Notes: generated by a model from the letters alone, not told the origin. Positions 13,157 through 47,285 are shown, counted from the first letter of the stretch. The stretch: 64,000 nucleotides of DNA from Minisyncoccota bacterium (GCA_041663025.1 JBAZRE010000002.1:27703-91702), one strand, 5' to 3'. Numbers and translations are program-made.

Positions 13157-13191
13157 GCAGCGGAGCAAATAAATAAAAAAGGGGGTGTACT

Positions 13192-29495: not shown

Positions 29496-29529
29496 GTTAT
29501 TAACTCATAACGCGTGTACCTATATATAG

Positions 29530-30300: not shown

Positions 30301-30326
30301 ATTTAAATGTTCAAATATTTAAAGAT

Positions 30327-31205: not shown

Positions 31206-31217
31206 AACATGCTATTA

Positions 31218-31238
31218 CCGTAAGGCGACGCCTTACGG
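31218..31238. repeat. palindromic element family 1, short variant (ccgtaaggcgacgccttacgg)
   Basis: Perfect palindrome followed by a T-run. Lies upstream of dprA and downstream of nothing on the + strand. Confidence 0.6.
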
Positions 31239-31329
31239 TTTTTCTCGTGTTATAATGTTAGTTGACAATCGGATATGTTTAGTATAAGTTGCAAGCAGAA
31301 GTTATTTCGAAAAAGAAAGGAGAACGCAC

Positions 31330-31656: not shown

Positions 31657-31675
31657 ACCCGCCCGCCGCAGAAAT

Positions 31676-31709
31676 CGCCCATTGGATTTCTCGGTGGGCG
31701 TTTCTGTTT
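31676..31709 (+). terminator. rho-independent terminator
   Basis: cgccca-ttggatttctcgg-tgggcg followed by tttctgttt. Confidence 0.5.
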
Positions 31710-31743
31710 GTATAGCCAAAACGGGTGATATACTGGAGCGCAT

Positions 31744-33841: not shown

Positions 33842-33883
33842 GGACATCGTAAGTCCCTCATGCAATTTGGACTTACGATGTCC
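33842..33883. terminator. palindrome family 4 hairpin (GGACATCGTAAGTCC..GGACTTACGATGTCC)
   Basis: 15-bp arms between the ftsQ-like gene and dus. A related copy lies inside dus at 34738-34779. Confidence 0.5.
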
Positions 33884-33891
33884 AAACATGG

Positions 33892-34983
33892 ATGGTATGG
33901 TACTTTGCATTTATGGATAACTTTTGGAATAACTTACCGAGGCCGTTTTTTGTCATGGCGCCCATGAAAGACGTCACTGACGTCGCCTTCCGTGCGCTTA
34001 TCGCCAAGCACTGCAAGCCCGACGTCTTCTGGACGGAGTTCGTCGCGGCAGACGGTCTTTATCACACCATCGAGAAGTACGAGAGACAAGGAGACTCCTC
34101 GCGCAAGGTGACTCCTCGCAGCGAGGTGTCTCCTTGTGGGAGCGCTAACGAGTTGAATCCGCTCCTGCGCGATCTCGCTTTTGACAAAGAAGCAGAACGG
34201 CCAATCGTCGCACAAATTTTTTCAAGCAAGCCAGAGATGATCGCGTATGCGACGAAGCTCGTTGCCGAACTCGGCTTTGATGGCGTTGATATCAACATGG
34301 GCTGCCCTGATCGCGCGATAGAGAAGCAGGGGTGCGGCTCGGCGATGATTAAGAATCCAGAACTCGCGCGCGAGATTATCCGCGCTGCAAAAAGTGCGTC
34401 CACACTGCCGGTATCAGTGAAGACGCGTGTTGGCTACAACAAAGAATCGCTCGACGAATGGTTGCCGGTCATTTTTGAAGAAGCGCCTGCGGCTATCACG
34501 ATTCACCTACGCACGCGCAAAGAGCTCTCACTAGTCCCGGCGAATTGGGAACTAATGAAAAAAGCAGTAGAGATTCGCAATCGCGTAAATCCCGATGTGC
34601 TGATCATAGGTAACGGTGATGTTGAGAGTGTTGAAGAAGGGAAGCATCTTGTCGCAGAGACCGGCTGCGATGGTATCATGATCGGCCGCGCGATGTTCGG
34701 CAACCCATGGATCTTCTCTGGTCTCTGGGATTCTCAGGGACATCGGATGTCCTCTTCTGAAATTGAACATCCGATGTCCAACCATGGGCTCCCCGAGAAA
34801 TTAGATGCTCTAATTGAGCTCGCCCACAACTTTGAAAAAATCTCCCCGCCCAAAAACTTCTCTATTCTTAAAAAACATATCAAAGCATTCGTCACCGGCT
34901 TCGCTGGAGCTGCCGACCTCCGCGCCAAATTAATGGAAGCCACCTCCGCCGCCGACCTTGAGCGTATCGCAAAACAAGGTTAA
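33892..34983 (+). CDS. dus: tRNA-dihydrouridine synthase
   Basis: TIM-barrel Dus motifs (MAPMKDVTD, DGVDINMGCP, KTRVG). Carries two in-frame palindromic inserts, and its TAA stop lies in a family-2 element. Confidence 0.85.
   Translation: MVWYFAFMDNFWNNLPRPFFVMAPMKDVTDVAFRALIAKHCKPDVFWTEFVAADGLYHTIEKYERQGDSSRKVTPRSEVSPCGSANELNPLLRDLAFDKEAERPIVAQIFSSKPEMIAYATKLVAELGFDGVDINMGCPDRAIEKQGCGSAMIKNPELAREIIRAAKSASTLPVSVKTRVGYNKESLDEWLPVIFEEAPAAITIHLRTRKELSLVPANWELMKKAVEIRNRVNPDVLIIGNGDVESVEEGKHLVAETGCDGIMIGRAMFGNPWIFSGLWDSQGHRMSSSEIEHPMSNHGLPEKLDALIELAHNFEKISPPKNFSILKKHIKAFVTGFAGAADLRAKLMEATSAADLERIAKQG
34087..34136. repeat. palindromic element family 1 variant inserted in-frame in dus
   Basis: ggagactcctcgcgcaaggtgactcctcgcagcgaggtgtctcc encodes GDSSRKVTPRSEVSPCG. 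Confidence 0.75.
34738..34779. repeat. palindromic element family 4 inserted in-frame in dus
   Basis: ggacatcggatgtcc-tcttctgaaatt-gaacatccgatgtcc encodes GHRMSSSEIEHPMS. Confidence 0.7.
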
Positions 34984-35015
34984 ACCTTGAGGATTCGGAT
35001 TTAAGGTTTAACCTT
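34976..35015. repeat. palindromic element family 2 variant spanning dus stop codon
   Basis: aaggttaaacctt-gaggattcggattt-aaggtttaacctt. A TCGAAC>TTAAAC variant creates the dus TAA stop. Confidence 0.75.
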
Positions 35016-35036
35016 GTTTTGCGTTATACTGCACCC

Positions 35037-36092
35037 ATGGCGCATCAGAGTTTATACCGGATACATAGACCGACAACATTTGCGGACGTGATAGGGCAAG
35101 AACATGTAACGAAGCCATTGGAGGAGGCAGTGAAGGCGAAGAAGATCGGCCATGCCTACCTCTTCGCCGGTACGCGAGGGTTGGGGAAGACTAGCGTAGC
35201 GCGCATCTTCGCTAGCGCGATCGGCTGCGGCGAGAATGATCTCTATGAAGTTGATGCCGCTAGTAATAATAGTGTTGAGGATATTCGAGCGCTCACCGAG
35301 GGCGTCTACACTTTACCTTTCCAATCTCCTTATAAAGTTTATATTCTCGACGAAGTGCACATGCTCTCAAAGAGCGCATGGAATGCTTTTCTTAAAACGC
35401 TTGAAGAGCCGCCAGCTCACGCAGTTTTTATTCTTGCCACTACTGAATTGGAGAAAGTCCCAGAGACCGTGCAGTCGCGCTGTCAGGTATTTGAATTTAA
35501 GAAGCCGACACGCGCCATCCTCGCTAAGATGACTGCGGCTGTGGCGAAAAAAGAGGGCTACACGCTCGCGCCTGATGCCGCCGACTTGATCTCGATGCTG
35601 GCCGATGGTTCATTCCGCGATGCTCTCTCGGTCTTGCAGAAAGTGCTGGGTTCATCAGCAGACAAAAAGTTATCGCGAGCAGAAGTAGAGCAGGCGACCG
35701 GCGCGCCGCGCCAAGAACAAGTGCATGCGCTCATAAACGCGCTCGCCGCGGGCGAGCGCGGGAAGGCTCTTGAAGCGATAGAGCAGGCAGCAAAAGCCGA
35801 TGCTGATATGAAGCTCTTCTTGCAGCTCGTGCTTGAAGCGCTTCGTGCAACCTTGCTCATCAAATTTGCACCCGACCTCCGCGCCTCACTCCAGAGCGAG
35901 CTCGGCGCGGACGAATTTGCCGCGCTTGAAAAATTCGCCCTATCAAATGTAGGACGTCCGACGTCCTACATTACGCATCAGACACTCCTGGCGTTTTTGA
36001 TCGCCGCCGATCGCATCCGCTATGCACCCATTCCCGTGCTGCCACTCGAATTGGCGATCTTGGAACTCTTTCCCGAAAACGCAACTAAGTGA
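35037..36092 (+). CDS. dnaX: DNA polymerase III subunit gamma/tau (short form)
   Basis: Clamp-loader AAA+ signature (GTRGLGKTS, DEVHMLS, SRC motif TVQSRCQVFEF). Contains an in-frame family-3 palindrome at 35947-35971 (encodes NVGRPTSYIT). Confidence 0.8.
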   Translation: MAHQSLYRIHRPTTFADVIGQEHVTKPLEEAVKAKKIGHAYLFAGTRGLGKTSVARIFASAIGCGENDLYEVDAASNNSVEDIRALTEGVYTLPFQSPYKVYILDEVHMLSKSAWNAFLKTLEEPPAHAVFILATTELEKVPETVQSRCQVFEFKKPTRAILAKMTAAVAKKEGYTLAPDAADLISMLADGSFRDALSVLQKVLGSSADKKLSRAEVEQATGAPRQEQVHALINALAAGERGKALEAIEQAAKADADMKLFLQLVLEALRATLLIKFAPDLRASLQSELGADEFAALEKFALSNVGRPTSYITHQTLLAFLIAADRIRYAPIPVLPLELAILELFPENATK

Positions 36093-37660
36093 TAATGTAT
36101 CTCTATTGGGAGATCGTCTAACGGTAGGACAGCGCCCTTTGAAGGCGTGAATCGGGGTTCGATTCCCTGTCTCCCAGCCCGAATAAAACTTGGGTCAGAT
36201 TCTGAAAAATTTTCCCGCGCGGCGCAGAGCGCCGCGTATGGTGGAGAAGGGATTTCTCGGACTTCTTTGTTATGCAAGTGCAGGTTCGAGCCGAAGAGTT
36301 TTTGGAGGGGGGATTTTTTGGAGGGGGTATCTTCTGATTTTGCTATTTCGTCCAGCATTGACGCCTCTTTTACCCATTCTCGCATCGGTTCGAGCCAGTG
36401 TCCGGCGTTCGCTTCAAGACGAGCCGTTTGCTCCTCGACCGACTTCTTCTCCAACACAAGAACGCGACGGCGCGCGAGGTAGTCCTCGCGCTCGATGTCT
36501 TGGGCGATATAGAGGTCGGTCAGGCGGTCGAGCTTGCGGGAAATGTCGTGGATTTTGTCCCGCAATTCTTGAACGAACGCCGCGGTCTGGAGAGACGAGG
36601 TATTTTCGTCTTCTGCTATCAACCTTTCAAATTCTGTCTGCCACGCCGAAGGCATCGCGTAGTTTCGGATTAACTCATCCAGTTGAGGTATTAGCGCTTC
36701 TTCTCGAACATACGGCTGGGAGCATGCACCTTTCTTTTTCGTACAGCGATAATAAACATAATGATGAGCGTTGCCGTTTTGCTGGTGCTTCGTCTTTTCT
36801 TCAGCCGTAATACCCATACCGCACTCGCCACAACGCAAAAGCCCACAGAGATCCTTTGGCTCGTTCTGGGCTTTCATCGGATGACCGCGTTCGACAATGA
36901 CTCGTTGCACTTTGTCGAATAGTCGCTTTTCAACGATGGGCGTATGTCGCCCTTCGCGTATTTCGCCGCCGTATGTAAAGAGGCCAACATAGAATGCATT
37001 GGTGAGAATGAACCTCACTCGGTCTTTGTGAAAATGGAGACCGCCAAAACTTCGCACTCCATTTTCATACATAAAATTAGAAATATCTTCAAGCCGCGAA
37101 TTACCTTTTGCATATAACTCGAACGCGGAGCGAATCACTTTTGACTTCTTGCGGTCAATAACAATAGTCTTCGCGCGTACATCATTCAAATAGCCGACAG
37201 GCGCAGTACTTGGGAATTCGCCACGCTTCACTTTGGCGCGCAAACCTCGCTTCACATTGGAACTCAAATCGCGAATAAACTGATTCGCCATGCCGAACTC
37301 TACCGACATCATCAACACATTGTCGCTCGGATAATGACTTCGGTCGTGCGTGCGAATATGCTGGATAATATTTTCTTGCAACAGCCAGCTTATCTGCCCG
37401 CCGTCCACCGGATTACGCGACAAGCGATCGAGCTTCCAACACACGATGCCCTGTGCCTCGCCCTTATGTATCCGCTTCAGCATTTCATTGAACACCGGAC
37501 GGCCGGGCATTTTCGCGCTCCGCTTCTCCACGAACTCCGCGACGACTTCTAACCTCTCGCTTTTGGCGAGCGCTCGTAATTCGGACAACTGCGCCTCAAT
37601 GGACAAAACTTGTTTGTCCTCAACATCGGTAGATTTTCGTGCGTAGAGAAAATAGCGCAT
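36020..37660 (-). CDS. large serine recombinase (resolvase catalytic domain + recombinase domain + zinc ribbon + coiled coil)
   Basis: N-terminal YARKSTDVEDKQVLSIEAQ with catalytic Ser, GIVCWKLDRLSRN, Cys cluster CGECG..C..C, and a long coiled-coil. The last roughly 100 codons read through repeat X and antisense tRNA-Gln, so the functional stop is uncertain. Confidence 0.75.
   Translation of the reverse strand: MRYFLYARKSTDVEDKQVLSIEAQLSELRALAKSERLEVVAEFVEKRSAKMPGRPVFNEMLKRIHKGEAQGIVCWKLDRLSRNPVDGGQISWLLQENIIQHIRTHDRSHYPSDNVLMMSVEFGMANQFIRDLSSNVKRGLRAKVKRGEFPSTAPVGYLNDVRAKTIVIDRKKSKVIRSAFELYAKGNSRLEDISNFMYENGVRSFGGLHFHKDRVRFILTNAFYVGLFTYGGEIREGRHTPIVEKRLFDKVQRVIVERGHPMKAQNEPKDLCGLLRCGECGMGITAEEKTKHQQNGNAHHYVYYRCTKKKGACSQPYVREEALIPQLDELIRNYAMPSAWQTEFERLIAEDENTSSLQTAAFVQELRDKIHDISRKLDRLTDLYIAQDIEREDYLARRRVLVLEKKSVEEQTARLEANAGHWLEPMREWVKEASMLDEIAKSEDTPSKKSPLQKLFGSNLHLHNKEVREIPSPPYAALCAARENFSESDPSFIRAGRQGIEPRFTPSKGAVLPLDDLPIEIHYHLVAFSGKSSKIANSSGSTGMGA
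36107..36177 (+). tRNA. tRNA-Gln (anticodon TTG)
   Basis: Acceptor TGGGAGA/TCTCCCA, D-arm GTCT/GGAC, anticodon stem GCGCC/GGCGT with loop CTTTGAA, T-loop GGTTCGATTCC. The 3' end abuts island repeat X. Confidence 0.8.
36178..36311. repeat. island repeat X (attL arm); identical in inverse orientation to 39303-39388, diverged further out
   Basis: 36178-36262 is the exact reverse complement of 39303-39388. Weaker similarity continues to about 36311 versus 39245. Confidence 0.8.
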
Positions 37661-37674
37661 AGGAGTATTATACA

Positions 37675-39159
37675 ATGACCATGAACATAGGACGGAACGA
37701 AAAATGCCCATGTGGAAGTGGTTTGAAATATAAAAAATGCCATATGGGAAAAGAACAAGATATGGGTAAAAATACCAAAAGATATCGTCATTTTTCGGGC
37801 GTTGTTTTCGATGGCTCTGGAGCCAATCTTTCGCTCTACGAAAAAAATATGACTTTGGTCGAAGCGATCATCGATATCTTTGGATTTACGGAAGGGCGAG
37901 ATTTAAGTGATATCAAGAGAACAGTCTCTCGCGAGCATGTAGCGGAATTGCATAAATTGGTGGCATGGCTTTGGCCACCTGATACGGACGTGACGAAATT
38001 TCTACCAGCCCCATCCAATAATTTGAGAGCACTCTATATGGGAAATATGCGGCCTCAAACAATTTTGAGAAGTGTCGGGAGATATTCGTTGTACTGCGAC
38101 GAAATACTGGTAATGGATCCTTTCATGAATCCATGGTTCATAGCACCTGACTACAATCCCATAATGCACCCAGAGGAGTACGTCTCTAATACATGGAAAT
38201 GGGTGTTATTTATTATCCAACTTGCACCATGGATATACGATAAACAGGTATTGTTGCTTCCAAACCCTCTCGACTTCGACTCGTCGTTGCGGAAAGAAAT
38301 GTGGGCTAGTGCGGAGAAACGATTAAATCCACAAAAGAACGATTTGCTGAAATTCCTCGAACAAGACGATTCCATGGGAGAAACTGCAAAAGAGGAATTT
38401 AAACGAACATGGATGTCTATTCCTGAATATGCACAACGAAAGAAAATAAAAGAGTTTGACAATAAAATGACGGAAGAAGAGGTCGATGGAATGATTAAGT
38501 ATATAGACAAAATGAAGGAAGAAGATCCTTACTTCGTGACAAATCCAAACGAAAAAGGAGGATTTGGTATCAGCACCCATACAATGGGCGGGAACTTGGA
38601 GCAGGGTTTATATATTTCTCAGCTAACCGGAGCTCATTTATACACAGATTTTGAATTTAGGTGGAGAGAGATTTTATCAGCTCAAACAGATACATCAGAA
38701 AAAAGCCCATGGAGTCCCATTGCGTATGGCTTCCAAAATCTCGATTTCAAATTTTTGGACGGCACAGATTTGAAATTCGTCCATAAAATAAAAGCAGACG
38801 GAAGATTGTCTAATTTGCGGAATTTCCTCCGAAAGACATGGAAAGAAGTATCAGCAGACGAGACACCAAATTATGAGAAGGCAAACAAACTTGCTTTGGA
38901 ATTTGCAGACGAACTGAAGGAACAGTATTCAAAAGCAGAGTCTGAATGGGAAGGTATAGACACAGATTTAACAAAATGGCTCTTGAGTAGAAGTGGGCTC
39001 GGGACCCTCGTTGCTACTGGAGGTGTAAATTGGACGATCCCCGCACTCGGCTTTGCAATGGAAGGCGTAAATCAGCTACTTACAGCACGGCATGAACGAA
39101 AGAATTTCAGGAAAAATGTACCACTTTCGGTCTTTGTTGATTTAAAAAAGAGAAAGTAA
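37675..39159 (+). CDS. SEC-C-motif protein of unknown function (494 aa)
   Basis: N-terminal CPCGSGLKYKKCH is a SEC-C zinc-binding motif. The rest has no recognised family. AT-rich gene, divergent from the recombinase with overlapping starts. Confidence 0.55.
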   Translation: MTMNIGRNEKCPCGSGLKYKKCHMGKEQDMGKNTKRYRHFSGVVFDGSGANLSLYEKNMTLVEAIIDIFGFTEGRDLSDIKRTVSREHVAELHKLVAWLWPPDTDVTKFLPAPSNNLRALYMGNMRPQTILRSVGRYSLYCDEILVMDPFMNPWFIAPDYNPIMHPEEYVSNTWKWVLFIIQLAPWIYDKQVLLLPNPLDFDSSLRKEMWASAEKRLNPQKNDLLKFLEQDDSMGETAKEEFKRTWMSIPEYAQRKKIKEFDNKMTEEEVDGMIKYIDKMKEEDPYFVTNPNEKGGFGISTHTMGGNLEQGLYISQLTGAHLYTDFEFRWREILSAQTDTSEKSPWSPIAYGFQNLDFKFLDGTDLKFVHKIKADGRLSNLRNFLRKTWKEVSADETPNYEKANKLALEFADELKEQYSKAESEWEGIDTDLTKWLLSRSGLGTLVATGGVNWTIPALGFAMEGVNQLLTARHERKNFRKNVPLSVFVDLKKRK

Positions 39160-39189
39160 AGGGAGCTTTGCTGATTAGAACTTTTCAGC

Positions 39190-39227
39190 GAAGGGGCTGG
39201 TGCGCGCACGGGTGGGAGGGGCAAGCA
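39190..39227. repeat. direct repeat DR1 (gaagggNctNNtgcgcgcacgggtgggagGGGCAAGCA)
   Basis: Matches 45423-45492 (DR2) apart from a 26-bp hairpin insertion in DR2. Confidence 0.6.
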
Positions 39228-39244
39228 CACTACGGGCGAGTTTG

Positions 39245-39554
39245 TGTTGTATTACCCCCTCCAAAAACTCTTCGGCTTCTGAATTTTGAACCTGCATTGC
39301 AAGTCAGAGAAATCCCTTCTCCACCATACGCGGCGCTCTGCGCCGCGCGGGAAAATTTTTCAGAATCTGACCCAAGTTTTATTCGGGCTACATTATACGA
39401 CCAAGTCCGAACTTTTTTCCAGCGCGCCCAATGATTACTCGCCCGCTCGCAGACTCGCGGGCTCGCCGCCGCGGACGGCGGCCCCTCGCTCCTGCCGCTC
39501 TCTATGCTTTGTTTTTTGGCGGGGGATGTCTTTGGAAAAGGAATGGAGCGGCAG
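39245..39554. repeat. internal inverted att-like block X'Y (reverse complement of Y'+X)
   Basis: 39245-39388 is the reverse complement of X, and 39387-39554 is the exact reverse complement of 45953-46120. The junction shares only AGC with both outer sites. Confidence 0.75.
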
Positions 39555-39611
39555 GGCGAGGGTCGATTTTGGGTAAATAGCCCTATTGCCCCTTATGTTA
39601 TTATTTCTTAT

Positions 39612-40451
39612 ATGCCCACGACGAACATAATTCGCGCTCTAGTAAACCTCGCGACAGCGAGAAATTTTGATCTCCCGGATGGTCCACAAGGGGCAAACCG
39701 AATTACAACCGTGGGTGCTCCGTTGGAATGCTTCATCAGAGATGCTTTTTGTAATTCCGCGCAAATTACGGATTTGCGCGAAAAAGAAACCGCCCATCGG
39801 GAGCATTTGTCATATCTCGGAAATTCAAAAAATCCGCCGGATTTTGTCATAAGAGCGGGCGATGCCGTAGAAGTTAAGAAAATCGAAAATCCGCTGTCAG
39901 GAATCGCGCTCAATAGTTCTTATCCTAAAGACCATATATACGTCGACGACCCGATGCTCTCCGCGGGATGCCGAGACTGTGAAGAAGGATGGCAACAGAA
40001 GGATTTAATTTATGCCATTGGAGTGGTTTCTGAAAATACAATCCAGTCCCTGCTATTCGTTTATGGAGATTGTTATGCAGCTAATCGCGAAGTATACGAA
40101 AGAATAAAGCAAAGAATTATCGCTGGGGTTGCACAATCGGAAGAAGTTGAATTCTCGGACACGAACGAACTTGCAAGGGTCAATCAAGTTGACCCGTTAG
40201 GCATTACTTATTTGCGAGTGCGAGGAATGTGGGGAATAGAAAATCCGCGCCGCGTTTTTGCTGACCTTAATTTCAATTCAAGAGAAGGTAGACCACTTGT
40301 TGCAACAATAATGCTCAGGTCAAAGTTTGAAAGTTTTCCTACCGAGGATAGGAATGCTCTAGCACAAGCTGCGGATAGGATTGAAGACATACAGATACGA
40401 AACCCTAACAACCCGGCACAGATGCTTGATGCAAAACTCATCGTCTTATGA
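39612..40451 (+). CDS. putative Type II restriction endonuclease (PD-(D/E)xK)
   Basis: NPPDFVIRAGDAVEVKK is a PD..x10..EVK catalytic motif. Overlaps the downstream C5-MTase by 4 nt. Start trimmed to ATG 39612. Confidence 0.55.
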   Translation: MPTTNIIRALVNLATARNFDLPDGPQGANRITTVGAPLECFIRDAFCNSAQITDLREKETAHREHLSYLGNSKNPPDFVIRAGDAVEVKKIENPLSGIALNSSYPKDHIYVDDPMLSAGCRDCEEGWQQKDLIYAIGVVSENTIQSLLFVYGDCYAANREVYERIKQRIIAGVAQSEEVEFSDTNELARVNQVDPLGITYLRVRGMWGIENPRRVFADLNFNSREGRPLVATIMLRSKFESFPTEDRNALAQAADRIEDIQIRNPNNPAQMLDAKLIVL

Positions 40452-41497
40452 AAATCATTTCTCTTTTTACTGGTGCTGGCGGACTTGATCTTGGGTTCAA
40501 GAAAGCTGGTTTTGACATTGTATGGGCAAATGAATACGACCCGGTAATTTGGGATACTTTTGAATCAAATTTCCCAGAGACGATACTAGATCGGAGAAGC
40601 ATAACTGACATACCTGCATCTGATGTTCCTGACGCATTTGGAATGATAGGCGGACCCCCGTGTCAGAGTTGGAGCGAAGCTGGAGCTGGTCGTGGAATTA
40701 ATGACAAGCGAGGTCAATTATTCTTTGAATACATCCGCCTCATTAAAGAAAAGCAACCGCTATTTTTTCTAGCCGAAAATGTTTCAGGCATTCTTTTTCC
40801 GCAACATGAAAAAGCATTTAGTACGATACTCAAGCAATTTAGCGATGTTGGCTACAATGTTAAATATCAACTATTGAATGCCAATGACTACGAGGTTCCT
40901 CAAGACCGCTTGCGCGTTATCGTAATCGGATATAGAAAAGACCTCGGTATTAGTTTTGAATTTCCAGAACCGCAACCCAAACGCCTTACTTTGCGCGATG
41001 CAATTTTTGATCTCCGCAACGCAAAACAAGCAAAAGAATTCAACAAGACAAACGGCGATGCACTTGAAATTCCAAATCACGAATATATGAATGGCGGTTT
41101 TTCAACGATTTATATGTCACGCAACCGAGTTCGTTCATGGGACGAACCGTCTTTCACTATTCAAGCCGGCGGTCGTCATGCTCCAATCCATCCGCAAGCG
41201 CCAAAAATGAAGTTCGTCTCGCAAAATGTGAGAATATTCGTTCCGGGTAAAGAAAAACTCTATCGCCGTTTATCAGTTCGCGAATGTGCACGGATACAAA
41301 CATTTCCTGACAACTTCATTTTCAAGTATAGAGATGTCGCAGACGGCTACAAGATGATAGGCAATGCAGTACCGGTCGAATTTGCTCATCACATTGGCAA
41401 AAAGATATATGCGGACCTTATTGCTGTAGGCAAGGTTCCTAGTCCTTACGACAAATTGTTCAAGGACAAGAAAACTCAAAATGTTCATCTACAATGA
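40448..41497 (+). CDS. dcm: DNA (cytosine-5)-methyltransferase
   Basis: Motif I FTGAGGLDLGF, motif IV GGPPCQSWS, motif VI ENV, and C-terminal GN(A/S)VPV-like motif. Confidence 0.9.
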   Translation: MKIISLFTGAGGLDLGFKKAGFDIVWANEYDPVIWDTFESNFPETILDRRSITDIPASDVPDAFGMIGGPPCQSWSEAGAGRGINDKRGQLFFEYIRLIKEKQPLFFLAENVSGILFPQHEKAFSTILKQFSDVGYNVKYQLLNANDYEVPQDRLRVIVIGYRKDLGISFEFPEPQPKRLTLRDAIFDLRNAKQAKEFNKTNGDALEIPNHEYMNGGFSTIYMSRNRVRSWDEPSFTIQAGGRHAPIHPQAPKMKFVSQNVRIFVPGKEKLYRRLSVRECARIQTFPDNFIFKYRDVADGYKMIGNAVPVEFAHHIGKKIYADLIAVGKVPSPYDKLFKDKKTQNVHLQ

Positions 41498-41527
41498 GAG
41501 AAAAACTAGTCTAATTAACTAGACCAT

Positions 41528-43162
41528 ATGTATATATCACACGCGAAAATTTCTAATTTCAGGGCTCTACAAGAGGTAGATGTTCCTCTTAATAAATGCT
41601 CGATTCTACTCGGAGAAAATGATGTGGGGAAAACATCTTTTCTCTTGGCACTTGACCGATTTTTTGCAAACAAGAAGATTTCAGACGAGGAAGATTTCTT
41701 TAATCGGGATACTTCGGCGGATATAACTTTAACGCTTACTTTCTCTGATTTACCTACAGACCCAACACTAGATTCAATTCAAAAAGCAGACGGGACGATT
41801 ACAGTTCGAAAAACCTTTTCATTTAATGAGACACCCGATACCAAAGCAATTATGGACGATTCTTCCACAAAGGCTGTGGACAAGTCGATTCTAAACGACT
41901 TACTATCAAGCGACGCGTTCCACTTCATTCCCGTGCGCAGAGATCTCAGTGTTCAATTTTCGATGACAAAAACTTCACTTCTAGGGAAAACTTTACGGGT
42001 ACGAATGCACGAAGCAATTAAAAATAATGACGCCGACCAATCTTTAGGGAAAGTTGAACAATTGCTTGTCGAAGCGATTAAGGGACCGCAGGAAGAATTA
42101 CAGGCTTTTTTAAGAGAGCAAATGCACAACGAAGACATGCGTCTCGTTTTCGACGCGCTAAATGTTGACCCAATAGAGGGGGTTTCGTTTAAAGTGAAAC
42201 TGGGCGATGACAAGATTGAAGATATTCTTGTGGAAAATCGCGGTGCCGGAACACAAAACAACCTAATAATCGCCTTATTCAGGCTCGTTGCTGGTCTTCA
42301 TGTTGAAGGAAAACTAATCTTTGCTATGGAAGAGCCAGAGAACAGTCTTCATCCTAAAGCACAAAGGCAACTATTTTCAGTACTCCAAGAAGTCAGCGAA
42401 AAATCTCAAGTCATTATTACTACTCACTCGCCAGTCTTTCTAGAAAGGAGCAGTTTTGAAAATAACATTATCCTTACCCGAACGGCAAAAGGAAATACTG
42501 TGGCTAAAGTATTTGACCATACACAACTAGAGGAGCTTAGAACAGATTTGGGTATCCGTCCTTCTGATGCTCTCCTTAAGGGTGGAGGTAATTGCGCAAT
42601 TCTTGTAGAAGGCAATACTGAGGAGGAGGCATATCCAATCTTTATGGAAATGCTTGGTCTAAGCGAATTCAAGCTGGGAATTGCGATAGTTAATATGCGC
42701 GGTAGCGATACTTCATTGGTTAGTAACACTGCTCGATTGCTAGGAGCATATGATATCCCGTGTGTGGTAGTACTAGATCAAGATGCCAAAGCAACTGCTG
42801 ATGATATCGTACGCGAAAGTAATGCTGGTCTTAAAAATGTTAAGAAAGTCTTTTGCTTAACCCAAGGAACAATGGAGGACTACTATCCTTTAGATATAGT
42901 GGCTGAAGTTATCAATCAAAGTTTTAATCCGACTCAGGCAGTAGTAGTTGCTGATTTTGATGATTCAAAACACGGTGCGGATAGGCTTAGTGACTTTAAG
43001 AAAGTTATGTACGAGAAAGGATTGGGTAAATCGCTAGGATACCTCAAAAGATTAATAGGTTCGAACGGTACTAAAATTATGAAAGAGAAAGGATTACCCG
43101 TGCCCGAAGAACTGGCGGGAGTGTTTGCAGAGGTAGTCAAGATTGTAAATGAAGGAGTTTAG
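41528..43162 (+). CDS. OLD-family / PARIS-like ATP-dependent nuclease (ABC-type ATPase + TOPRIM)
   Basis: Walker A GENDVGKTS, Walker B/D-loop VIITTHSP after EPENSLHP, C-terminal TOPRIM (ILVEGNTEE..VVVLDQDAKA). AT-rich. Confidence 0.7.
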   Translation: MYISHAKISNFRALQEVDVPLNKCSILLGENDVGKTSFLLALDRFFANKKISDEEDFFNRDTSADITLTLTFSDLPTDPTLDSIQKADGTITVRKTFSFNETPDTKAIMDDSSTKAVDKSILNDLLSSDAFHFIPVRRDLSVQFSMTKTSLLGKTLRVRMHEAIKNNDADQSLGKVEQLLVEAIKGPQEELQAFLREQMHNEDMRLVFDALNVDPIEGVSFKVKLGDDKIEDILVENRGAGTQNNLIIALFRLVAGLHVEGKLIFAMEEPENSLHPKAQRQLFSVLQEVSEKSQVIITTHSPVFLERSSFENNIILTRTAKGNTVAKVFDHTQLEELRTDLGIRPSDALLKGGGNCAILVEGNTEEEAYPIFMEMLGLSEFKLGIAIVNMRGSDTSLVSNTARLLGAYDIPCVVVLDQDAKATADDIVRESNAGLKNVKKVFCLTQGTMEDYYPLDIVAEVINQSFNPTQAVVVADFDDSKHGADRLSDFKKVMYEKGLGKSLGYLKRLIGSNGTKIMKEKGLPVPEELAGVFAEVVKIVNEGV

Positions 43163-43180
43163 TAAAGTGGTCAGCCCGAT

Positions 43181-43474
43181 ATGAACTACCCTATCTTCAT
43201 CATCGTCGCTCTAGCTGGAATCGCTCTCGGGATGTATCTCGCACGGCGAGGTAAGAGCGATTTAATTTCTGAACAAGAGAAACGGAAAACCGAGAATAAG
43301 AAAAAGATTCTTGAATTTGTGCAGGCAAACGGAAAAATACAGAACAACGATGTGGAAAAACTAGCCAGAGTATCCAACGCAACCGCCGAGCGGTATTTGG
43401 ACGAGCTAGAAAAGGAGGGGAAACTGGTACAGCACGGCGACATTGGTCAAGGCGTTTTCTATAGCGCAAAATAA
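43181..43474 (+). CDS. membrane-anchored DeoR-like winged-HTH protein
   Basis: N-terminal TM (IFIIVALAGIALGMYL). C-terminal DVEKLARVSNATAERYLDELEKEGKLV matches the DeoR/HTH_11 pattern (VS..TirRdL..Le..G.l). Confidence 0.5.
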   Translation: MNYPIFIIVALAGIALGMYLARRGKSDLISEQEKRKTENKKKILEFVQANGKIQNNDVEKLARVSNATAERYLDELEKEGKLVQHGDIGQGVFYSAK

Positions 43475-43502
43475 GCACATTTTTGACGAATAACTCAACG
43501 GG

Positions 43503-43838
43503 TTGAGTTATTCGTACAGCCAGTCATCAACCTGCTATGCTAGGGTAATGTATCCGAAACTGACATCAGAGGAATTTCAGGCCCTTCTACTGTATAAGAG
43601 GGATTTCTTAGATTTATACGACATCAAAACGATTCCCCTTTATAGGCAAGTAGCTACCGGCTTACATCACCTCGCTGTATCCAAATCGATTGGAGGATAT
43701 GTGAATTGGAGAACGCACGAATGGAACGAAGTGAAAAAGAATATACAAGAAGCGACAATTCACTATTTGAAGGCGTGTTTGTATGACCCGAAATATCTCT
43801 CCTTCTCGGCAACTCGCGAAGCTTTCGGGTTGAGTTAA
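43503..43838 (+). CDS. hypothetical protein (111 aa)
   Basis: ORF preceded by a palindromic terminator-like hairpin (gacgaataactcaac-ggg-ttgagttattcgtac). No family recognised. Confidence 0.35.
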   Translation: MSYSYSQSSTCYARVMYPKLTSEEFQALLLYKRDFLDLYDIKTIPLYRQVATGLHHLAVSKSIGGYVNWRTHEWNEVKKNIQEATIHYLKACLYDPKYLSFSATREAFGLS

Positions 43839-43841
43839 TCG

Positions 43842-44780
43842 CTAGGGCCAGCAAACATCAGGCGTTTCGCCTATGTCTGATTCAAGCTTCTGCCAGACCT
43901 CTGCCTTCGTGCCGAGTTGATCAATAAGCCCATTACGGAGCGCCATCGCGCCGAGCATCGTGGAGCCGTCTGCGAGCGCGGTCACTTTCGCGACCGAAAG
44001 ATTGCGATTCGTCGCCACGGCATTGATGAAATTCTGGTGGAGAATGTCGAGATCGCGCTGTATCAGTGAACGCTCGGTCGCGGTCAGTGGCTTGTCGGAG
44101 CTTCCCATATCTTTATACAGACCCGCTGTAAGTTGGTTGTAGGTCAGACCGTCTTTCAAGTTCTGTTTTGCATTATCAACATACGAGGTCGTAACCCCGA
44201 TGCCACCGACATCTGAATTTTCTGAAGCGATAATGGTGTCGGCCGCACTCGCGATCCAGTATGCGGCTGAATCGGCGCTCTCGCGCACCCATGCGATGGA
44301 GGGCTTACCGAAATTCTTCACCGCGCTGGCTATCTCGTCGGCGGCAACTGGAGAACCGCCGCCTGAATCGATTTCAAGAACGAGTGCTTTAATCTGCGAA
44401 TTGCTCGACGCCTCTTCAATCGCCCAAATGACATCTTCAGATGAAGTGATAGTGTCGCAGTAGTTCAGGCCATCGCTGGGCGGATTATTTTCAGCATCGG
44501 GTTTATACGTGGCGATGCAGTCCCGTATCTCGATACCAATCGCGTTACAATTTTCATCAATGCCTCCGGTGTCTGAAGATTCCGAATCATACGTACTGTC
44601 ATCTGAACCTGTGGGGATAGCGTAGATAATTAAAAATCCCGCGACTGTTGCAACAGTCATGAGTAAGAATATTGAAACAAGAAGACCGACACTCGTAAAT
44701 CGTGATTCAAGCCATGTGAATGGCCACACGAGACCAGAAAAGAATTCCTTTATCTTGGCATAGGCATTCTTGTCAATCAT
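43842..44780 (-). CDS. S49-family (SppA-like) serine peptidase, membrane-anchored
   Basis: N-terminal TM. DSGGGSPVAADE..SAADTIIASENSDVGGIGV resembles the SppA/ClpP-fold catalytic region. Confidence 0.55.
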   Translation of the reverse strand: MIDKNAYAKIKEFFSGLVWPFTWLESRFTSVGLLVSIFLLMTVATVAGFLIIYAIPTGSDDSTYDSESSDTGGIDENCNAIGIEIRDCIATYKPDAENNPPSDGLNYCDTITSSEDVIWAIEEASSNSQIKALVLEIDSGGGSPVAADEIASAVKNFGKPSIAWVRESADSAAYWIASAADTIIASENSDVGGIGVTTSYVDNAKQNLKDGLTYNQLTAGLYKDMGSSDKPLTATERSLIQRDLDILHQNFINAVATNRNLSVAKVTALADGSTMLGAMALRNGLIDQLGTKAEVWQKLESDIGETPDVCWP

Positions 44781-44821
44781 TGTTTCGAGTATAGCACTCG
44801 CGTTTAGGTTAGAATAAAAGC

Positions 44822-45331
44822 ATGCCTGAAGAAACTACACCTCAAGTCCCTGAACCTGCGACAGAGCCGACCGTGCCTCCACAGGAGACGCCGCCTGCTC
44901 AAGCGCCTGAAGCCGTCCCAAGCGAGCTGACAGTCGAAGTTTCTCCACCCGTAGAGGTCCAAACGGATCAGCCCCCAACCCAAACGGGTCAAATACCACC
45001 AAATGACCCGTTGCCTCCGGAAAGTGAACCGATTGAACCCGCCCCCGAGCCGCCGTCTGCGGCGGCTCCAGCACAAACCGGCATCCTGCACTCCGCTCGC
45101 GATCTCCTGAACAAAGCCCGCATCTCAATTCAAGACCGCAAGCGCAAGAAGCGAGATAAAATCATGGAAGCACTGACGAAGAAAACCAAAATCACCAACG
45201 ACGAAGTTGAAAAACTCCTGCATGTTTCGGATTCAACAGCGGAGCGGTATCTCTCGGTGCTTGTGAAAGAAGGAAAAATTAAACAAGACAGAAGAACCGG
45301 GGCGGGCGTAAGTTATTCAAGAGCGCCCTAA
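44822..45331 (+). CDS. Pro-rich protein with C-terminal DeoR-like winged HTH (paralog of 43181 C-terminus)
   Basis: C-terminus KITNDEVEKLLHVSDSTAERYLSVLVKEGKIKQ parallels 43181..43474. N-terminal 100 aa are PxxP-rich and low complexity. Confidence 0.5.
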   Translation: MPEETTPQVPEPATEPTVPPQETPPAQAPEAVPSELTVEVSPPVEVQTDQPPTQTGQIPPNDPLPPESEPIEPAPEPPSAAAPAQTGILHSARDLLNKARISIQDRKRKKRDKIMEALTKKTKITNDEVEKLLHVSDSTAERYLSVLVKEGKIKQDRRTGAGVSYSRAP

Positions 45332-45338
45332 AATTTTT

Positions 45339-45410
45339 GCCCTCGTAAGCTAACGGATAAACTGCCTCGATTCTAGCGAGGACTTGGGAGTTCGAATCTT
45401 CCCGAGGGCG
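45339..45410 (+). tRNA. tRNA-Arg (anticodon TCT)
   Basis: Acceptor GCCCTCG/CGAGGGC, anticodon stem CCTCG/CGAGG with loop ATTCTAG, T-loop GTTCGAATC. No encoded CCA. Lies inside the island. Confidence 0.8.
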
Positions 45411-45952
45411 CAGATATTTCTTGAAGGGAGTCTTCGCATGCGCGCACGGGTGGGAGAAGTCCGCGCGTAATCGCGCGGACTTGGGGCAAGCATTTGCATT
45501 TGCCTCGGGGCTGTTTCCGCTATGAGCGTCCATGGCGAAGGACGAGCGCCGACCCTCATCGAAGCATCAGGGTTTCGAAGCGGAAGCGACAAGATAAACA
45601 CAAAAATGAAAACGAGGAGAGGGGTTGTGCGATGGGCGGAATCCGAAGGAACGAGGATGAGCCCGAGCTGGGGAGAGGATTCCTTCCTCTCCCCAAACAA
45701 GAGCCGCCCCGAGCTCCGCTCAGCAGAGCGGAGTGCGAGGATAAGGCGGCACAAACGAATCTAGGCGCTCGTAGCCATAGCGGAAACAGCCCCGAGGCGG
45801 ATGCCGAGGGGTGGATTGCCTTTGCCAATGGACGACAACTACAGAGCGGAGAAAACAGCTCGAGACCACAGGAAATTTGCATTTGGGCTGAACGGCTCAT
45901 TTCTTCCCATGTGAGCCGTTAGGCGGGAAGAAGTGAGCCGTTCCCCGAGCCA
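45411..45952. other. about 540-bp GC-rich non-coding region with multiple inverted repeats (candidate structured RNA or cis-acting site)
   Basis: Only short, mutually overlapping Arg/Gly-rich ORFs. Inverted repeats include ctcggggctgtttccgctatg (45472) versus catagcggaaacagccccgag (45775), ggggagagg-attcctt-cctctcccc, and gcatttgcatttgcc versus ggaaatttgcatttggg. Confidence 0.45.
45423..45492. repeat. direct repeat DR2 with inserted hairpin (aagtccgcgcgtaatcgcgcggactt)
   Basis: Direct match to DR1 at 39190-39227, starting 13 bp after tRNA-Arg. Confidence 0.6.
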
Positions 45953-46120
45953 CTGCCGCTCCATTCCTTTTCCAAAGACATCCCCCGCCAAAAAACAAAG
46001 CATAGAGAGCGGCAGGAGCGAGGGGCCGCCGTCCGCGGCGGCGAGCCCGCGAGTCTGCGAGCGGGCGAGTAATCATTGGGCGCGCTGGAAAAAAGTTCGG
46101 ACTTGGTCGTATAATGTAGC
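45953..46120. repeat. island repeat Y' (attR arm), exact reverse complement of 39387-39554
   Basis: 168/168 identity. Followed immediately by the ASCH-gene leader (putative B' flank). Confidence 0.8.
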
Positions 46121-46129
46121 TAATTATTT

Positions 46130-46471
46130 ATGAAAAACTGGACGTTACGGTTTCGGGCGGTTGATAAAGATAATTTTGACGAAGTAAAGATTGGTATCAA
46201 ATCTATCGAAACGCGTGCCGCGACAATTAAATATCAGCCAATAAAAATTAGTGACACTCTCACCTTTGTTTGCGGGAAAGAAAAGTGTGTTAAGAAGATT
46301 AGTAAGAAATTTCATTGGCCAAGCATTGATGCGATGGTGAAGGGGGTTGATTTCAAAAAAATAATGCCCTCGGTCGATTCCGTAGAGGAAATGAAAAAGA
46401 TCTACGCCTCATATCCCGACTACGAAAAGAAAATCAAAGAACATGGATTATTTGGATTTGAGCTTGAATAG
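46130..46471 (+). CDS. ASCH/PUA-like domain protein
   Basis: About 110 aa. The KIGIKSIETRA..D motif resembles the ASCH GxKxxExR signature. Confidence 0.45.
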   Translation: MKNWTLRFRAVDKDNFDEVKIGIKSIETRAATIKYQPIKISDTLTFVCGKEKCVKKISKKFHWPSIDAMVKGVDFKKIMPSVDSVEEMKKIYASYPDYEKKIKEHGLFGFELE

Positions 46472-46660: not shown

Positions 46661-47083
46661 ATGAAAATTGGCATTATCGGCAGCATGCAATATACCGAGC
46701 AGATGGTGAAGGCGCGTGATGATTTGCGGGCGCTCGGACATGACGCTTTTCTTACTGACCTGCACAAAACTCTTGTGGGCAAGAGCGATGAAGAAAAAGA
46801 GGTAATAAAAATAGAGCAAAAAAATAATCAAGACGCTATCCGAGAATTTTGGCACCAGATGCAAGGCGCAGATGCGGTGTTAGCGGTCAATCTCGATAAG
46901 CATGGTATCAAAAATTATATTGGTGGAAACACTCTTATGGAGATCGGATTCGCGCATGTGTTGAATCAGAAGATTTATCTCCTGAACCCGATTCCCTGCA
47001 TCTCGTTCTACAAGTCTGAAATAGAAGCAATGCGCCCTACTATCCTCAACGGTGACTTGTCTCTCATCAAGGTTAAACCTTGA
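46661..47083 (+). CDS. nucleoside 2-deoxyribosyltransferase-like protein
   Basis: MKIGIIGSM Rossmann start, GADAVLAV..GGNTLMEIGFA resembles the Nuc_deoxyrib_tr fold (sD.v.a...G.D.GT.fEiGyA). Confidence 0.5.
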   Translation: MKIGIIGSMQYTEQMVKARDDLRALGHDAFLTDLHKTLVGKSDEEKEVIKIEQKNNQDAIREFWHQMQGADAVLAVNLDKHGIKNYIGGNTLMEIGFAHVLNQKIYLLNPIPCISFYKSEIEAMRPTILNGDLSLIKVKP

Positions 47084-47285
47084 TATCTACTGCTCAATGA
47101 ATCGCGCGGAAGGCGCGGATGTGTCGTTGTCGCCGGAACTCCCACAGCTCTCTCTTGCGAGCAAAAAAGGCAAAGAGCCTCTCAATGGATTTTTTCATTC
47201 CCTAGATAGACGATGATGATAGCTGATTCTTACATATGATAAAAAACGGCCACGCACGTGACCGTTTTTTACTACGTGTTCGTTG

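Follow-up and report, generated by a model that had tools for sequence, protein, structure and literature searches.

A probable bipartite mobile island with an inverted internal attP at tRNA-Gln in a Minisyncoccota bacterium

Prophages and islands moved by large serine recombinases, such as SPbeta SprA, the Listeria A118/LI integrase, Bxb1 and phiC31, have a short shared core, no flanking direct repeats and a recombinase gene beside attP, and the motifs of their P-type and B-type half-sites are spaced differently. The tRNA islands, including the tycheposons, are small islands with cargo or defence genes at tRNA genes of streamlined genomes, in which the tRNA is kept functional; tycheposons mostly carry tyrosine integrases, and a few encode large serine recombinases (bioRxiv 10.1101/2020.12.28.424599). 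The locus described here agrees with the former in enzyme class and domain order as well as in core, repeats, gene position and half-site spacing, and with the latter in size, cargo, tRNA target and preserved tRNA. In contrast to the tRNA islands, it has neither a tyrosine integrase nor a direct repeat of the tRNA 3′ end, and just 3–8 nt are common to the junctions of the elements of its family.

The window, i.e., the whole stretch of 64,000 nt that was analysed (GCA_041663025.1, JBAZRE010000002.1:27703-91702), contains the following target, recombinase and attachment features:

36106–36180, plus strand: tRNA-Gln(ttg), the target (ARAGORN; Rfam tRNA, 60.6 bits)
36020–37660, minus strand: large serine recombinase, Rec (Pfam Resolvase, Recombinase and Zn_ribbon_recom; PDB SprA and A118)
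36176–36178, plus strand: attL core AGC at tRNA positions of about 72–74, common to the three junctions; tRNA-Gln/AGC/X reads ...tctccc AGC ccgaataaaac
36176–36311, plus strand: outer X arm, P′ side; 36176–36264 is an inverted copy of 39301–39389 (89 nt, 99% identity; repeat search), followed by diverged homology
36214–36228, minus strand: GC-rich palindrome and T-run inside X, terminator-like in the recombinase-sense direction
39255–39389, minus strand: X′ arm of the inner inverted site; it is a pseudo-copy of the 3′ end of the recombinase gene
39387–39389, minus strand: core of the inner inverted attP (GCT on the plus strand); Y′/AGC/X reads ...tataatgt AGC ccgaataaaac
39387–39554, minus strand: inner inverted Y′ arm, P side, 168 nt at 100% identity to the outer copy (repeat search)
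39392–39421, minus strand: promoter-like TGGAAA-18-TATAAT of the inner Y′, running over the core into segment a in the direction of the recombinase
45953–46120, plus strand: outer Y′ arm, P side of attR (inverted-repeat search)
46086–46115, plus strand: promoter-like TGGAAA-18-TATAAT of the outer Y′, directed across attR into the host-side ORF
46118–46120, plus strand: attR core AGC; Y′/AGC/host reads ...tataatgt AGC taattattt

All three junctions were read directly, and by reading and alignment AGC is the only sequence common to them. The first-pass annotation had described tRNA next to X, Y′ next to host DNA and an internal inverted Y′X that share only AGC, which repeat search and direct reading bore out, and had interpreted the sites as attL, attR and an intact inverted attP of a serine recombinase, an interpretation supported by the core alone being common. 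Two of its boundaries were moved: X, placed at 36178, begins at 36176/36179, the core being 36176–36178, and the internal block given as 39245–39554 is 39255–39554. An extra 23-nt block (36289–36311 and 39255–39277) brings the X-like homology, indels included, to about 136 nt. Probes of 30 nt from the X and Y′ arms matched the att positions only in the 64-kb window (chance expectation 0), which excludes the scenario of dispersed repeats envisaged earlier as a refutation; a REP/MITE-like family was likewise rejected, as no copies of X or Y′ occur at unrelated loci of the window. The outer X arm encodes, on the minus strand, the C-terminus of the recombinase (translation), and its palindrome encodes the peptide PYAALxAAR, which is conserved in the family consensus; the palindrome is also the fusion point in a decayed element (L112).

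The recombinase ORF is open from 37711, with a likely start at M18 (37660), and has no stop before attL, reading through X, the core and the antisense tRNA. Its domains (PF00239, PF07508, PF13408) all score above the Pfam cut-offs, and its closest solved relatives in PDB are SPbeta SprA (SprA/YokA) and the A118 integrase. The large serine recombinase reported earlier beside attL is thus genuine, but its ORF runs across attL instead of merely adjoining it. A classical tyrosine-integrase tRNA island was considered and rejected: Pfam searches found no tyrosine recombinase in the island, the repeat search found no direct repeats of 20 nt or more there, and 3 nt are common to the junctions. A recombination directionality factor was not recognisable by domain annotation in the island or in the cargo of relatives, such factors being very diverse; the wHTH proteins of the backbone are candidates. 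The remaining genes are:

37675–39159, plus strand: SEC-C-motif protein, 494 aa, cargo of segment a, divergent from the recombinase (GC 0.40, low)
39504–41497, plus strand: NgoPII-type restriction enzyme and C5 cytosine methyltransferase, variable cargo (Pfam; PADLOC)
41528–43162, plus strand: OLD/GajA-like ATPase-TOPRIM nuclease, variable cargo (Pfam; PADLOC)
43181–43474, plus strand: backbone wHTH protein, HTH_24/DUF977-like, kept in the b segments of relatives
43842–44780, minus strand: S49-family peptidase, cargo (Pfam)
44822–45331, plus strand: second wHTH protein, 169 aa, of backbone type (Pfam and comparison with relatives)
45339–45411, plus strand: element-borne tRNA-Arg(tct) (ARAGORN, Rfam), also present in relative L123
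46130–46471, plus strand: first ORF of the right flank, 113 aa, with homologues inside b of L011 and L139

We define segment a as x, rec (with or without defence cargo) and x′, and segment b as y′, the wHTH backbone with cargo, and y. Relatives carry defence genes where the SEC-C-motif protein sits, and the restriction-modification cargo is missing in three of them (L160, L123, L163). Segment b belongs to the element, since its wHTH backbone and end regions are conserved among relatives while the restriction-modification and OLD cargo is swapped. Replication genes are represented by a single Replic_Relax among 74 b proteins. The ORF following attR had been called an ASCH gene, a name that finds no match for the 113-aa product in Pfam. 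Old island DNA may also make up the right flank, which leaves the ancestral attB sequence uncertain.

In attL, the T-arm and acceptor 3′ strand of tRNA-Gln make up the B-type left half-site, with GTTCGA 19 nt from the junction. A T-loop-like GGTTC motif at the y end lies 4 nt farther from the core (GTTC at 23 nt versus 19 nt in the tRNA), and this shift is exactly +4 in 37 of 46 loci. Following the published integrase model, the +4 shift is read here as the difference between P-type and B-type half-site spacing. As a pattern of sequence, the two half-site types thus appear to share a motif at differing distance from the centre. We conclude that 36176–46120 is probably one integrated copy of a bipartite mobile island, inserted by Rec at the extreme 3′ end of tRNA-Gln. 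Rec would exchange strands in the AGC core between attP (Y′/AGC/X) and attB (tRNA/AGC/host), and the products would be attL (tRNA/X) and attR (Y′/host) with an intact tRNA. The universal tRNA T-arm would be read by Rec as a B-type half-site and mimicked by the Y′ end, where GGTTC lies 4 nt outward, as expected of a P-type half-site; no conservation is seen in the half-site on the host side.

Homologues of the recombinase comprise more than 7000 proteins, and species-representative genomes, nearly without exception Patescibacteria, contribute at least 593 loci. The 3′ end of the gene overlaps an antisense tRNA in approximately 55 of 80 loci, involving at least 12 tRNA types, and the family protein consensus extends into the T-arm antisense (G.EP). 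About 60 of 80 loci have an inverted x copy; among the 32 that are well flanked (at least 8 kb), the number is 29. At least 12 diverged elements, sitting on different tRNAs, have the full set, tRNA/x..x′/y′..y/host with cores of 3–8 nt, some of them on contigs of complete-chromosome assemblies, and the two inverted y termini were found 2.8–7.3 kb apart on five further metagenome contigs. A one-off composite or a tangled assembly, both entertained in the first-pass annotation, are contradicted by this recurrence. The comparison showed that the inverted inner attP and the two-module build are a hallmark of nearly all members, neither accident nor artefact, and the island belongs to a very large family of mobile defence islands of these ultra-small bacteria that has apparently not been described.

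Within an element, the copies are about 100% identical over approximately 100 nt (x) and 130–160 nt (y) from the core. The y arms are 99–100% identical within elements versus 64–88% between relatives, and about 74% in the rec-less remnant L112; the two copies evolve in concert. Arms of 100–360 nt at about 100% identity are more than regulation alone needs, a counterpoint to a regulatory role of the inner copy.

Concerning what the inner copy does, our leading guess is that it serves as a promoter/operator copy for the recombinase, i.e., that it acts mainly in cis as an intact Rec-binding attP over an outward promoter pointing to rec; we propose this tentatively, at well below even odds. It would keep rec under the autoregulated control of the element once integration splits the primary attP. 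The two best promoter-like matches of the island are the two Y′ termini (10 of 12 positions), in a scan that was not enriched over the whole region (13 matches versus 13.6 expected from shuffles). The outward promoter-like element of the y end is conserved family-wide, and a −10-like box was present in 28 of 37 y flanks versus none of 36 tRNA flanks. In minimal elements, the inner copy lies 124–273 nt upstream of rec and is always directed toward it; in cargo-bearing elements, it lies up to 9 kb from rec, with the cargo genes facing it.

Rare variants show that the inner site can also recombine. It is conceivable, though doubtful, that the inner copy is a second working attP for cassette exchange or for capture and rearrangement of DNA at a second tRNA site, which would give the element two recombination-competent sites. 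The inner core matches the tRNA-specific core in 12 of 12 elements, and several loci look like products of such events: in L069, rec lies between two inverted tRNA-like 3′ ends (t1/x..x′/t2′), in L084 y/core and core/x are separated by 165 nt of inserted DNA, at the end of which lies a 16-nt tRNA fragment, and L086, L103 and L133 show chains or hybrid y/x junctions. However, these variants make up less than 10% of the loci, equal use of both sites predicts orientations of about 50:50, contrary to the data, and an exposed attP risks chromosomal rearrangements.

A flip of segment a, whether Rec recombined attL with the inner site or homologous recombination brought it about, would toggle rec between the element's promoter and read-through from the tRNA, with assemblies mostly catching the stable state; we regard such a switch as unlikely. 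A recombinase 3′ end joined to y, giving a y-antisense C-terminal tail, was found in 7 of 112 homologue clusters (about 6%). L030 and L180 match the isomer with inverted a exactly: downstream of rec come x′/y′ and then b genes in the direction of rec. L155 and L131 have the same junction. Such junctions are compatible with a circle, an inversion or a mis-join, and the minority contigs have only 2–4× coverage; as x (about 100 nt) exceeds common k-mer sizes, mis-joins through it give the same sequence. Against the switch, the recombinase 3′ end abuts the tRNA in approximately 50 of 54 loci, and all 8 related pairs compared have a colinear segment b. This near-fixed orientation argues against free flip-flop, and hence against the freely invertible segment suggested at first, while a rare inverted state of a, at about 6%, may exist. 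The duplication of y and the never-flipping b would also be left unexplained.

Alternatively, the inner copy might be a functionless relic, an ancestral inverted duplication of att homogenised by ordinary gene conversion. As a relic would have it, identity falls away from the core, and beyond the perfect x tract an older, diverged homology persists. We consider this quite improbable, as the copy is kept in the well-flanked loci noted above across recombinases only 55–85% identical, the arms are 99–100% identical though 12–36% diverged between relatives, and the copies decay after loss of rec (L112). Conversion between inverted repeats should, moreover, yield inversions, which are rare or absent.

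A more radical proposal, and a long shot, is that the inner attP acts as a single-strand splint which pairs both element ends and rebuilds an attP circle without an excision enzyme. A strand of the island would enter a naturally competent Patescibacteria cell, or be exposed at a replication fork; x would pair with x′ and y with y′, so that the uninterrupted inner copy aligns both element ends next to each other. Once flaps were trimmed, gaps filled and the strand ligated, the product would be a precisely excised circle with attP rebuilt, which the unidirectional recombinase would insert at a tRNA. If true, this would account for an inverted copy spanning both arms, for the length of the arms and their renewal to about 100% identity, graded from the core outward, for the unchanging orientation and for the lack of a visible directionality factor. 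In a less radical, related reading, the inner attP may be a DNA-encoded accessory site that unlocks attL × attR recombination.

Two adjacent elements, a recombinase transposon with inverted X ends and a CIME-like passenger with inverted Y′ ends, are very unlikely. Each segment is indeed bounded by its own inverted repeats, and the rec-less L112/L132 retains y′..y beside the tRNA. Yet the modules abut at the same 3–8 nt core in every complete example, x, y and core co-vary with the element, and about 48 of 54 loci have the y terminus on the outer side of the inner x copy. Accretion gives direct repeats, whereas this island and all its relatives have the internal site in inverted orientation, and L112 is a decay product of a bipartite element, since it keeps a collapsed x-x′ scar. 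The 45-bp DR1/DR2 pair, at which a passenger was thought to have been captured, is absent, an exact 18-mer at 39201 and 45439 being the only notable direct repeat; together with the inverted orientation of the internal site, this speaks against the two-element or CIME reading given initially.

An assembly artefact, with integrated and excised forms tangled or separate contigs joined, is extremely improbable: no single public contig spans the island, NCBI contig JBAYFT010000002.1 ending at window position 39509 inside the inner Y′ and ENA k141 contigs exactly 141 nt into repeats including Y′, but the diverged inner X part (39255–39300) is no collapsed repeat, the inner x′/y′ (NCBI contig) and y′-b-y (an ENA contig) are each contiguous, and the layout recurs in dozens of unrelated assemblies, including contigs of 0.2–0.9 Mb and complete chromosomes. 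Each local junction is matched by an independent public contig at 100% identity; public k-mer contigs break in the repeats, and linkage and orientation of a and b therefore lack independent k-mer-contig confirmation here. A wrap-around idea was tested against the public contigs and ruled out. Neither a circular excised contig nor, in a weak search, an empty attB (tRNA-Gln/host) was recovered among them, and it is from comparative anatomy alone that the element appears to be mobile.

Outside its nearest relatives, the bipartite island resembles several systems in part. For KplE1 IntS, the int promoter overlaps the att region and the integrase is autoregulated (PMC2951348). By analogy, autorepression of rec through a promoter embedded in the attachment region is conceivable, though KplE1 has a tyrosine integrase and uses its natural attL, where a dedicated inverted duplicate of attP would serve here. 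In CTXphi attP(+) and integron attC, inverted copies on one strand can pair and rebuild a site, a likeness that goes no further than analogy; those systems use tyrosine recombinases and short hairpins, whereas the present arms are kilobases apart and the enzyme normally requires a duplex. The inferred excised circle would resemble the yeast 2-micron plasmid, with FLP/FRT in two inverted repeats and two unique segments, in that its own two inverted repeats, both with the recombinase target, would part a segment bearing the recombinase from a second one, but the island is integrated, has no replication genes of its own and shows no isomers at comparable frequency. With the serine invertases Hin, Gin, Cin and Pin it shares a recombinase gene between site-bearing inverted repeats and possibly a minority inverted state; it differs in its large serine recombinase, repeats of 100–360 nt, probable mobility, and a second inverted-repeat-flanked module, b, never seen flipped. 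An internal inverted attP has not been described for classical tRNA islands or tycheposons. Compared with other prophages and islands of large serine recombinases, the family lacks a recognisable directionality factor, its host-side half-site is unconserved and its recombinase ORF crosses the att site; it targets the extreme 3′ end of tRNA genes of many specificities via the universal T-arm, and besides the split attP it has an intact, inverted one that is kept identical to it.

The att-like inverted repeats at tRNA-Gln are real and far beyond chance. In the island (36176-46120), segment a is enclosed by an outer and an inner copy of the P'-side arm X, and segment b by an inner and an outer copy of the P-side arm Y', according to the following features:

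36106-36180: tRNA-Gln(ttg), Rfam score 60.6 bits
36176-36264 and 39301-39389: arm X, inverted pair of 89 nt, 99% identity (repeat search)
out to 36311 and 39255: extra 23-nt inverted block extending the X-like homology
39387-39554 and 45953-46120: arm Y', inverted pair of 168 nt, 100% identity (repeat search)

Direct reading and a three-site alignment firmly establish the att-site logic: attL (tRNA|X) reads ...tctccc-AGC-ccgaataaaac, the inner site between a and b reads ...tataatgt-AGC-ccgaataaaac on the minus strand, and attR (Y'|host) reads ...tataatgt-AGC-taattattt. This upholds the first-pass annotation in its claim that the three junctions share AGC alone, and the layout it proposed stands; its exact coordinates do not, as the cores lie at 36176-36178, 39387-39389 and 46118-46120, and the internal block begins only at 39255. 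Neither were its 45-bp repeats DR1/DR2 found, an exact 18-nt direct repeat alone being present (TGCGCGCACGGGTGGGAG; 39201-39218 and 45439-45456; 0.04 matches expected), nor does the supposed ASCH gene right of attR have an ASCH match. A dispersed repeat family, the alternative raised there, is contradicted by 30-nt probes from X and Y', which gave no further match in 64 kb (expectation 0). An empty attB would be expected to read tRNA-Gln|AGC|TAATTATTT. Neither an empty site, for which the search was weak, nor an excised circle was found, and no circular contigs were recovered among homologues with y-type tails.

The two copies of the 18-nt repeat lie just inside the inner X arm and directly past a tRNA-Arg borne by the element; the related locus L131 has a similar motif upstream of y, the P-side arm. 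The repeat is a candidate regulator-binding site. A 29-nt inverted repeat (93%; 45496-45524 and 45776-45804) lies in conserved non-coding DNA between tRNA-Arg and the outer Y'. Outside the island, dus and dnaX are separated by a near-perfect hairpin of 24 nt (34965-35026; TATCGCAAAACAAGGTTAAACCTT / AAGGTTTAACCTTGTTTTGCGTTA), which has a related copy at 47068-47097 and probably represents either a terminator or a small repeat. An Rfam scan of the island returned two tRNAs and no other family, and at 46-58 kb neither further remnants of att sites nor inverted repeats turned up. The first gene right of attR (46130-46471) has homologues within b of relatives (L011, 5997-6337; L139, 5077-5417), and the host flank of a close relative (L160, 286-536) matches 55020-55270 of the window, 9 kb farther right. 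The stretch 46.1-55 kb is thus possibly DNA of an older island, in place of the original neighbour of tRNA-Gln.

The large serine recombinase (Rec) reported beside attL was confirmed as a minus-strand ORF in segment a with Resolvase, Recombinase and Zn_ribbon_recom domains, which establishes the enzyme class; the nearest solved structures are SPbeta SprA/YokA and the A118 integrase. The ORF is stop-free up to attL and reads on across X, the core and the antisense strand of the tRNA (36020-36178). Its C-terminal tail depends on the junction, being the tRNA-antisense ...AGRQGIEPRF... here versus ...SFIRATLYDQVRTFFQRAQ or ...ATLYDQVRTFFQRAQ, each followed by a stop, in the attP form. Since the inner X copy is readable as the Rec C-terminus (...VREIPSPPYAALCAARENFSESDPSFIR) and diverges beyond, it is a true paralogous copy and no collapsed repeat. 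X also holds a GC-rich palindrome with a T-run, which is terminator-like in the outward direction and encodes a conserved PYAALRAAR peptide. As this hairpin sits within the final 40 codons of rec and no stop precedes the att core, transcripts ending at the hairpin would be non-stop mRNAs.

Segment a also carries a low-GC gene with a SEC-C motif, divergent from rec; we considered its product as a degenerate second recombinase and rejected this, as no similarity was detected. Segment b contains, in order, an NgoPII-type restriction-modification pair, an OLD/GajA-like nuclease, two wHTH genes, an S49 peptidase and tRNA-Arg(tct) (45339-45411). Four close relatives (L160, L123, L163 and L139) keep the wHTH gene as well as that end of b which is proximal to tRNA-Arg, but have other genes in place of restriction-modification and OLD. 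The tRNA-Arg itself is kept in L123 and missing from b of 12 other subfamilies. Left of the window start, the ENA assembly (L007) carries EcoRI-type methylase, GmrSD/HNH, DpnI, HTH-SocA/Panacea and AcrVA2-like genes; window positions 1-13600 together with this upstream part look like another defence or mobile region of the same genome.

The suggestion that a tangled assembly created the inner copy is not supported, because the local junctions are independently covered and the layout recurs in relatives. The NCBI contig JBAYFT010000002.1 (GCA_041667065.1; 64,857 nt) is 100% identical to window 27675-39509 and stops at 39509|39510, 123 nt into the inner Y', where the window runs on seamlessly, and public records have the restriction-enzyme gene of b solely in 5-10 kb contigs; the window therefore comes from, or was joined by, another assembly or scaffolding step. 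In an independent MEGAHIT assembly, ENA contigs span 39414-46093 (b with inverted Y' ends of exactly 141 nt) and also run from 45980 rightward. That the window arose by rotation of the 64,857-nt contig and was joined artificially at 39509|39510 is excluded, since ENA contigs take the window ends into different genes and an independent contig runs seamlessly through 39414-46093. While k-mer contigs cannot show how a and b are oriented across the repeats, comparative data settle this point indirectly. Illumina adapter sequence (e.g., AGATCGGAAGAGCACACGTCTGAACTCCAGTCAC...) is left at the ends of two ENA contigs (L002, 1-59; L180, 1-70).

More than 7000 homologues of Rec were found (E<1e-20), and their consensus past the core, SFIxA...GxEP, corresponds to a tRNA T-arm translated in antisense. 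At least 593 loci in species-representative genomes, essentially all Patescibacteria, carry the gene; the following locus statistics are drawn from the best 80 of these. An antisense tRNA overlaps the 3' end of rec in about 55 of them, and most ARAGORN-negative loci have a tRNA-like 3' end at the junction. Targeting of tRNA genes is thus a clear property of the whole family, and the types include Gln, Asn, Glu, Leu, Thr, Val, Ser, Arg, Ile, Tyr, Ala and Gly. Some ARAGORN-negative targets appear to contain introns (L069, 9444-9700; L031, L033, L034, L035 and L043); the ARAGORN intron search gave a tRNA with a 181-nt intron and, elsewhere, tRNA-Asn-like 3' halves alone. This agrees with the group I introns that were reported from tRNA genes of Patescibacteria in 2026 (PMC13011429).

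An inverted copy of the final 110-170 nt of rec lies upstream of the gene, at a distance of 124 nt to 9 kb, in about 60 of the best 80 loci, and in 29 of the 32 with at least 8 kb of upstream flank; the copied stretch reaches precisely to the tRNA junction. Another inverted pair (148-364 nt, 95-100%) adjoins the inner copy in 12 loci, overlapping it by only 3-8 nt and repeating the arrangement tRNA|core|x, inverted y|core|x and y|core|host (x being the P'-side arm), and the core differs by element (e.g., GAGC, CAC, CTC, TCAC or TACCAA). When metagenomes were scanned with the y terminus typical of the window's subfamily, 91 matches were obtained, about 26 of them with the standard inner junction, and on five contigs two inverted y copies lie 2.8-7.3 kb apart. 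Taken together, an internal inverted attP is the norm for the family, and its bipartite layout with two inverted repeats is clearly conserved. Some of the loci surveyed lie on contigs of 0.2-0.9 Mb or in records whose titles say complete chromosome; several of the contigs seem, judged from their naming, to be long-read assemblies. Accessory genes in a are nearly always divergent from the recombinase and mostly defensive (type I/II/III restriction-modification, AAA_15/OLD, GmrSD, ThsB-TIR, HEPN-Abi, DUF3800). The b segments share a recurring wHTH backbone gene beside variable cargo; their proteins include next to no replication machinery, and no directionality factor could be recognised among them.

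The y terminus follows the consensus (A)AATAGGTTCgAGC-N8-10-TAtAgA|core in about 50 loci. The distance to the junction is 23 nt for the GTTC of y and 19 nt for the GTTCGA of the tRNA T-loop, in the window too, and the offset is exactly +4 in 37 of 46 loci. In the model of Rutherford and Van Duyne, the zinc-ribbon motif of a P-type half-site reportedly lies a few bp farther out than that of a B-type half-site, which the observed offset fits. The motif at the x terminus is weaker (..AAtAAAACT..) and doubles as code for ...SFI, and the host-side half-site has no conservation. One recognisable half-site, universal to tRNAs, would account for the broad target range. The Rec family would appear to read the universal T-arm and to need almost nothing at the opposite half; integration would proceed by attP x attB strand exchange inside the core, with the tRNA T-arm as the element recognised by Rec.

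Within an element, the copies are about 100% identical over the first ~100 nt of x and 130-160 nt of y, with background values beyond. As y arms are 99-100% identical within an element versus 64-88% between related elements, the copies clearly evolve in concert. Orientation is biased as well: the 3' end of rec adjoins the tRNA in about 50 of 54 loci and b is colinear in all eight comparisons of related elements, so the a/b orientation is nearly fixed. These counts argue against the proposal of a freely invertible segment and lead us to reject equal use of two attPs. A y-antisense C-terminal tail occurs in 7 of 112 homologue clusters. In L112 (7329-7524) and L132, both of them metagenome contigs without the recombinase, fusion of x with x' at the GC palindrome has shrunk a to ~95 nt; y'-b-y remains beside tRNA-Gln, its two y copies ~74% identical.

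Five roles were considered for the inner attP, and each leaves some features unexplained. We tentatively favour a cis-regulatory copy, in which a promoter and a predicted Rec operator would outlast integration. Both Y' termini (TGGAAA-18-TATAAT) are the top two promoter-like matches in the 10.5-kb region, directed toward the core, and a family-wide TTGCTA/TGGAAA - 17/18 - TAnAAT stops 2-7 nt short of it; the -10-like box is plainly a feature of y flanks (28/37) versus tRNA flanks (0/36). The predicted promoter of the outer copy faces host DNA and that of the inner copy faces a, always toward rec, whose start codon in minimal elements lies just 124-273 nt downstream of the inner copy. A small antisense RNA from the inner copy would fold only mildly better than shuffles (z = -2.2), with no clear terminator in that direction. 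All statements on promoters, binding and directionality are in silico, and that long arms stay identical without inversions is awkward for a regulatory copy.

A second working att site is unlikely in view of the orientation counts, although rare variants suggest that the inner site is able to recombine: rec between two inverted tRNA-like ends (t1|x rec x'|t2'; L069, 9444-11700), a 165-nt insert with a 16-nt tRNA fragment within the inner site (L084, 7540-8070), a chain in which segments flanked by x alternate with segments flanked by y, the latter of two different types (L086, 9437-12758), and hybrids joining y of one subfamily to x of another (L103/L133). For a switch inverting the recombinase cassette, which we consider distinctly unlikely, downstream genes in L030 and L180 have the direction that inversion of a alone, or else a mis-join through x, would give them. 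A neutral relic homogenised through gene conversion seems improbable; long identical arms without inversions are as awkward for it as for regulation. A single-strand splint permitting circularisation without enzyme is very improbable.

If upheld, these results give a major bacterial group of tiny genomes its own dominant family of site-specific islands, ferrying restriction-modification, OLD/Gabija-like, Thoeris-TIR, GmrSD and Abi genes among tRNA genes. The island repeats also explain many Patescibacteria contigs that end at tRNA-proximal recombinase genes. Recognition of the T-arm suggests easily retargeted enzymes, of interest to genome engineering, and solving the role of the inner attP, regulatory or otherwise, could reveal a new control of recombinase expression or directionality, or a new transfer route. 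In full-text searches of the literature on serine recombinases in Patescibacteria/CPR, at tRNAs or with an inverted attP, neither the family nor its layout was found described. To our knowledge, textbook serine-integrase biology offers nothing comparable to a second attP that is inverted, conserved and actively homogenised, and reading the T-arm with a nearly free opposite half is unusual among serine integrases. The recombinase that phage phiRSM uses at a tRNA gene is a small serine recombinase. Among tycheposons, a few elements with a serine recombinase sit at tRNAs (bioRxiv 10.1101/2020.12.28.424599).
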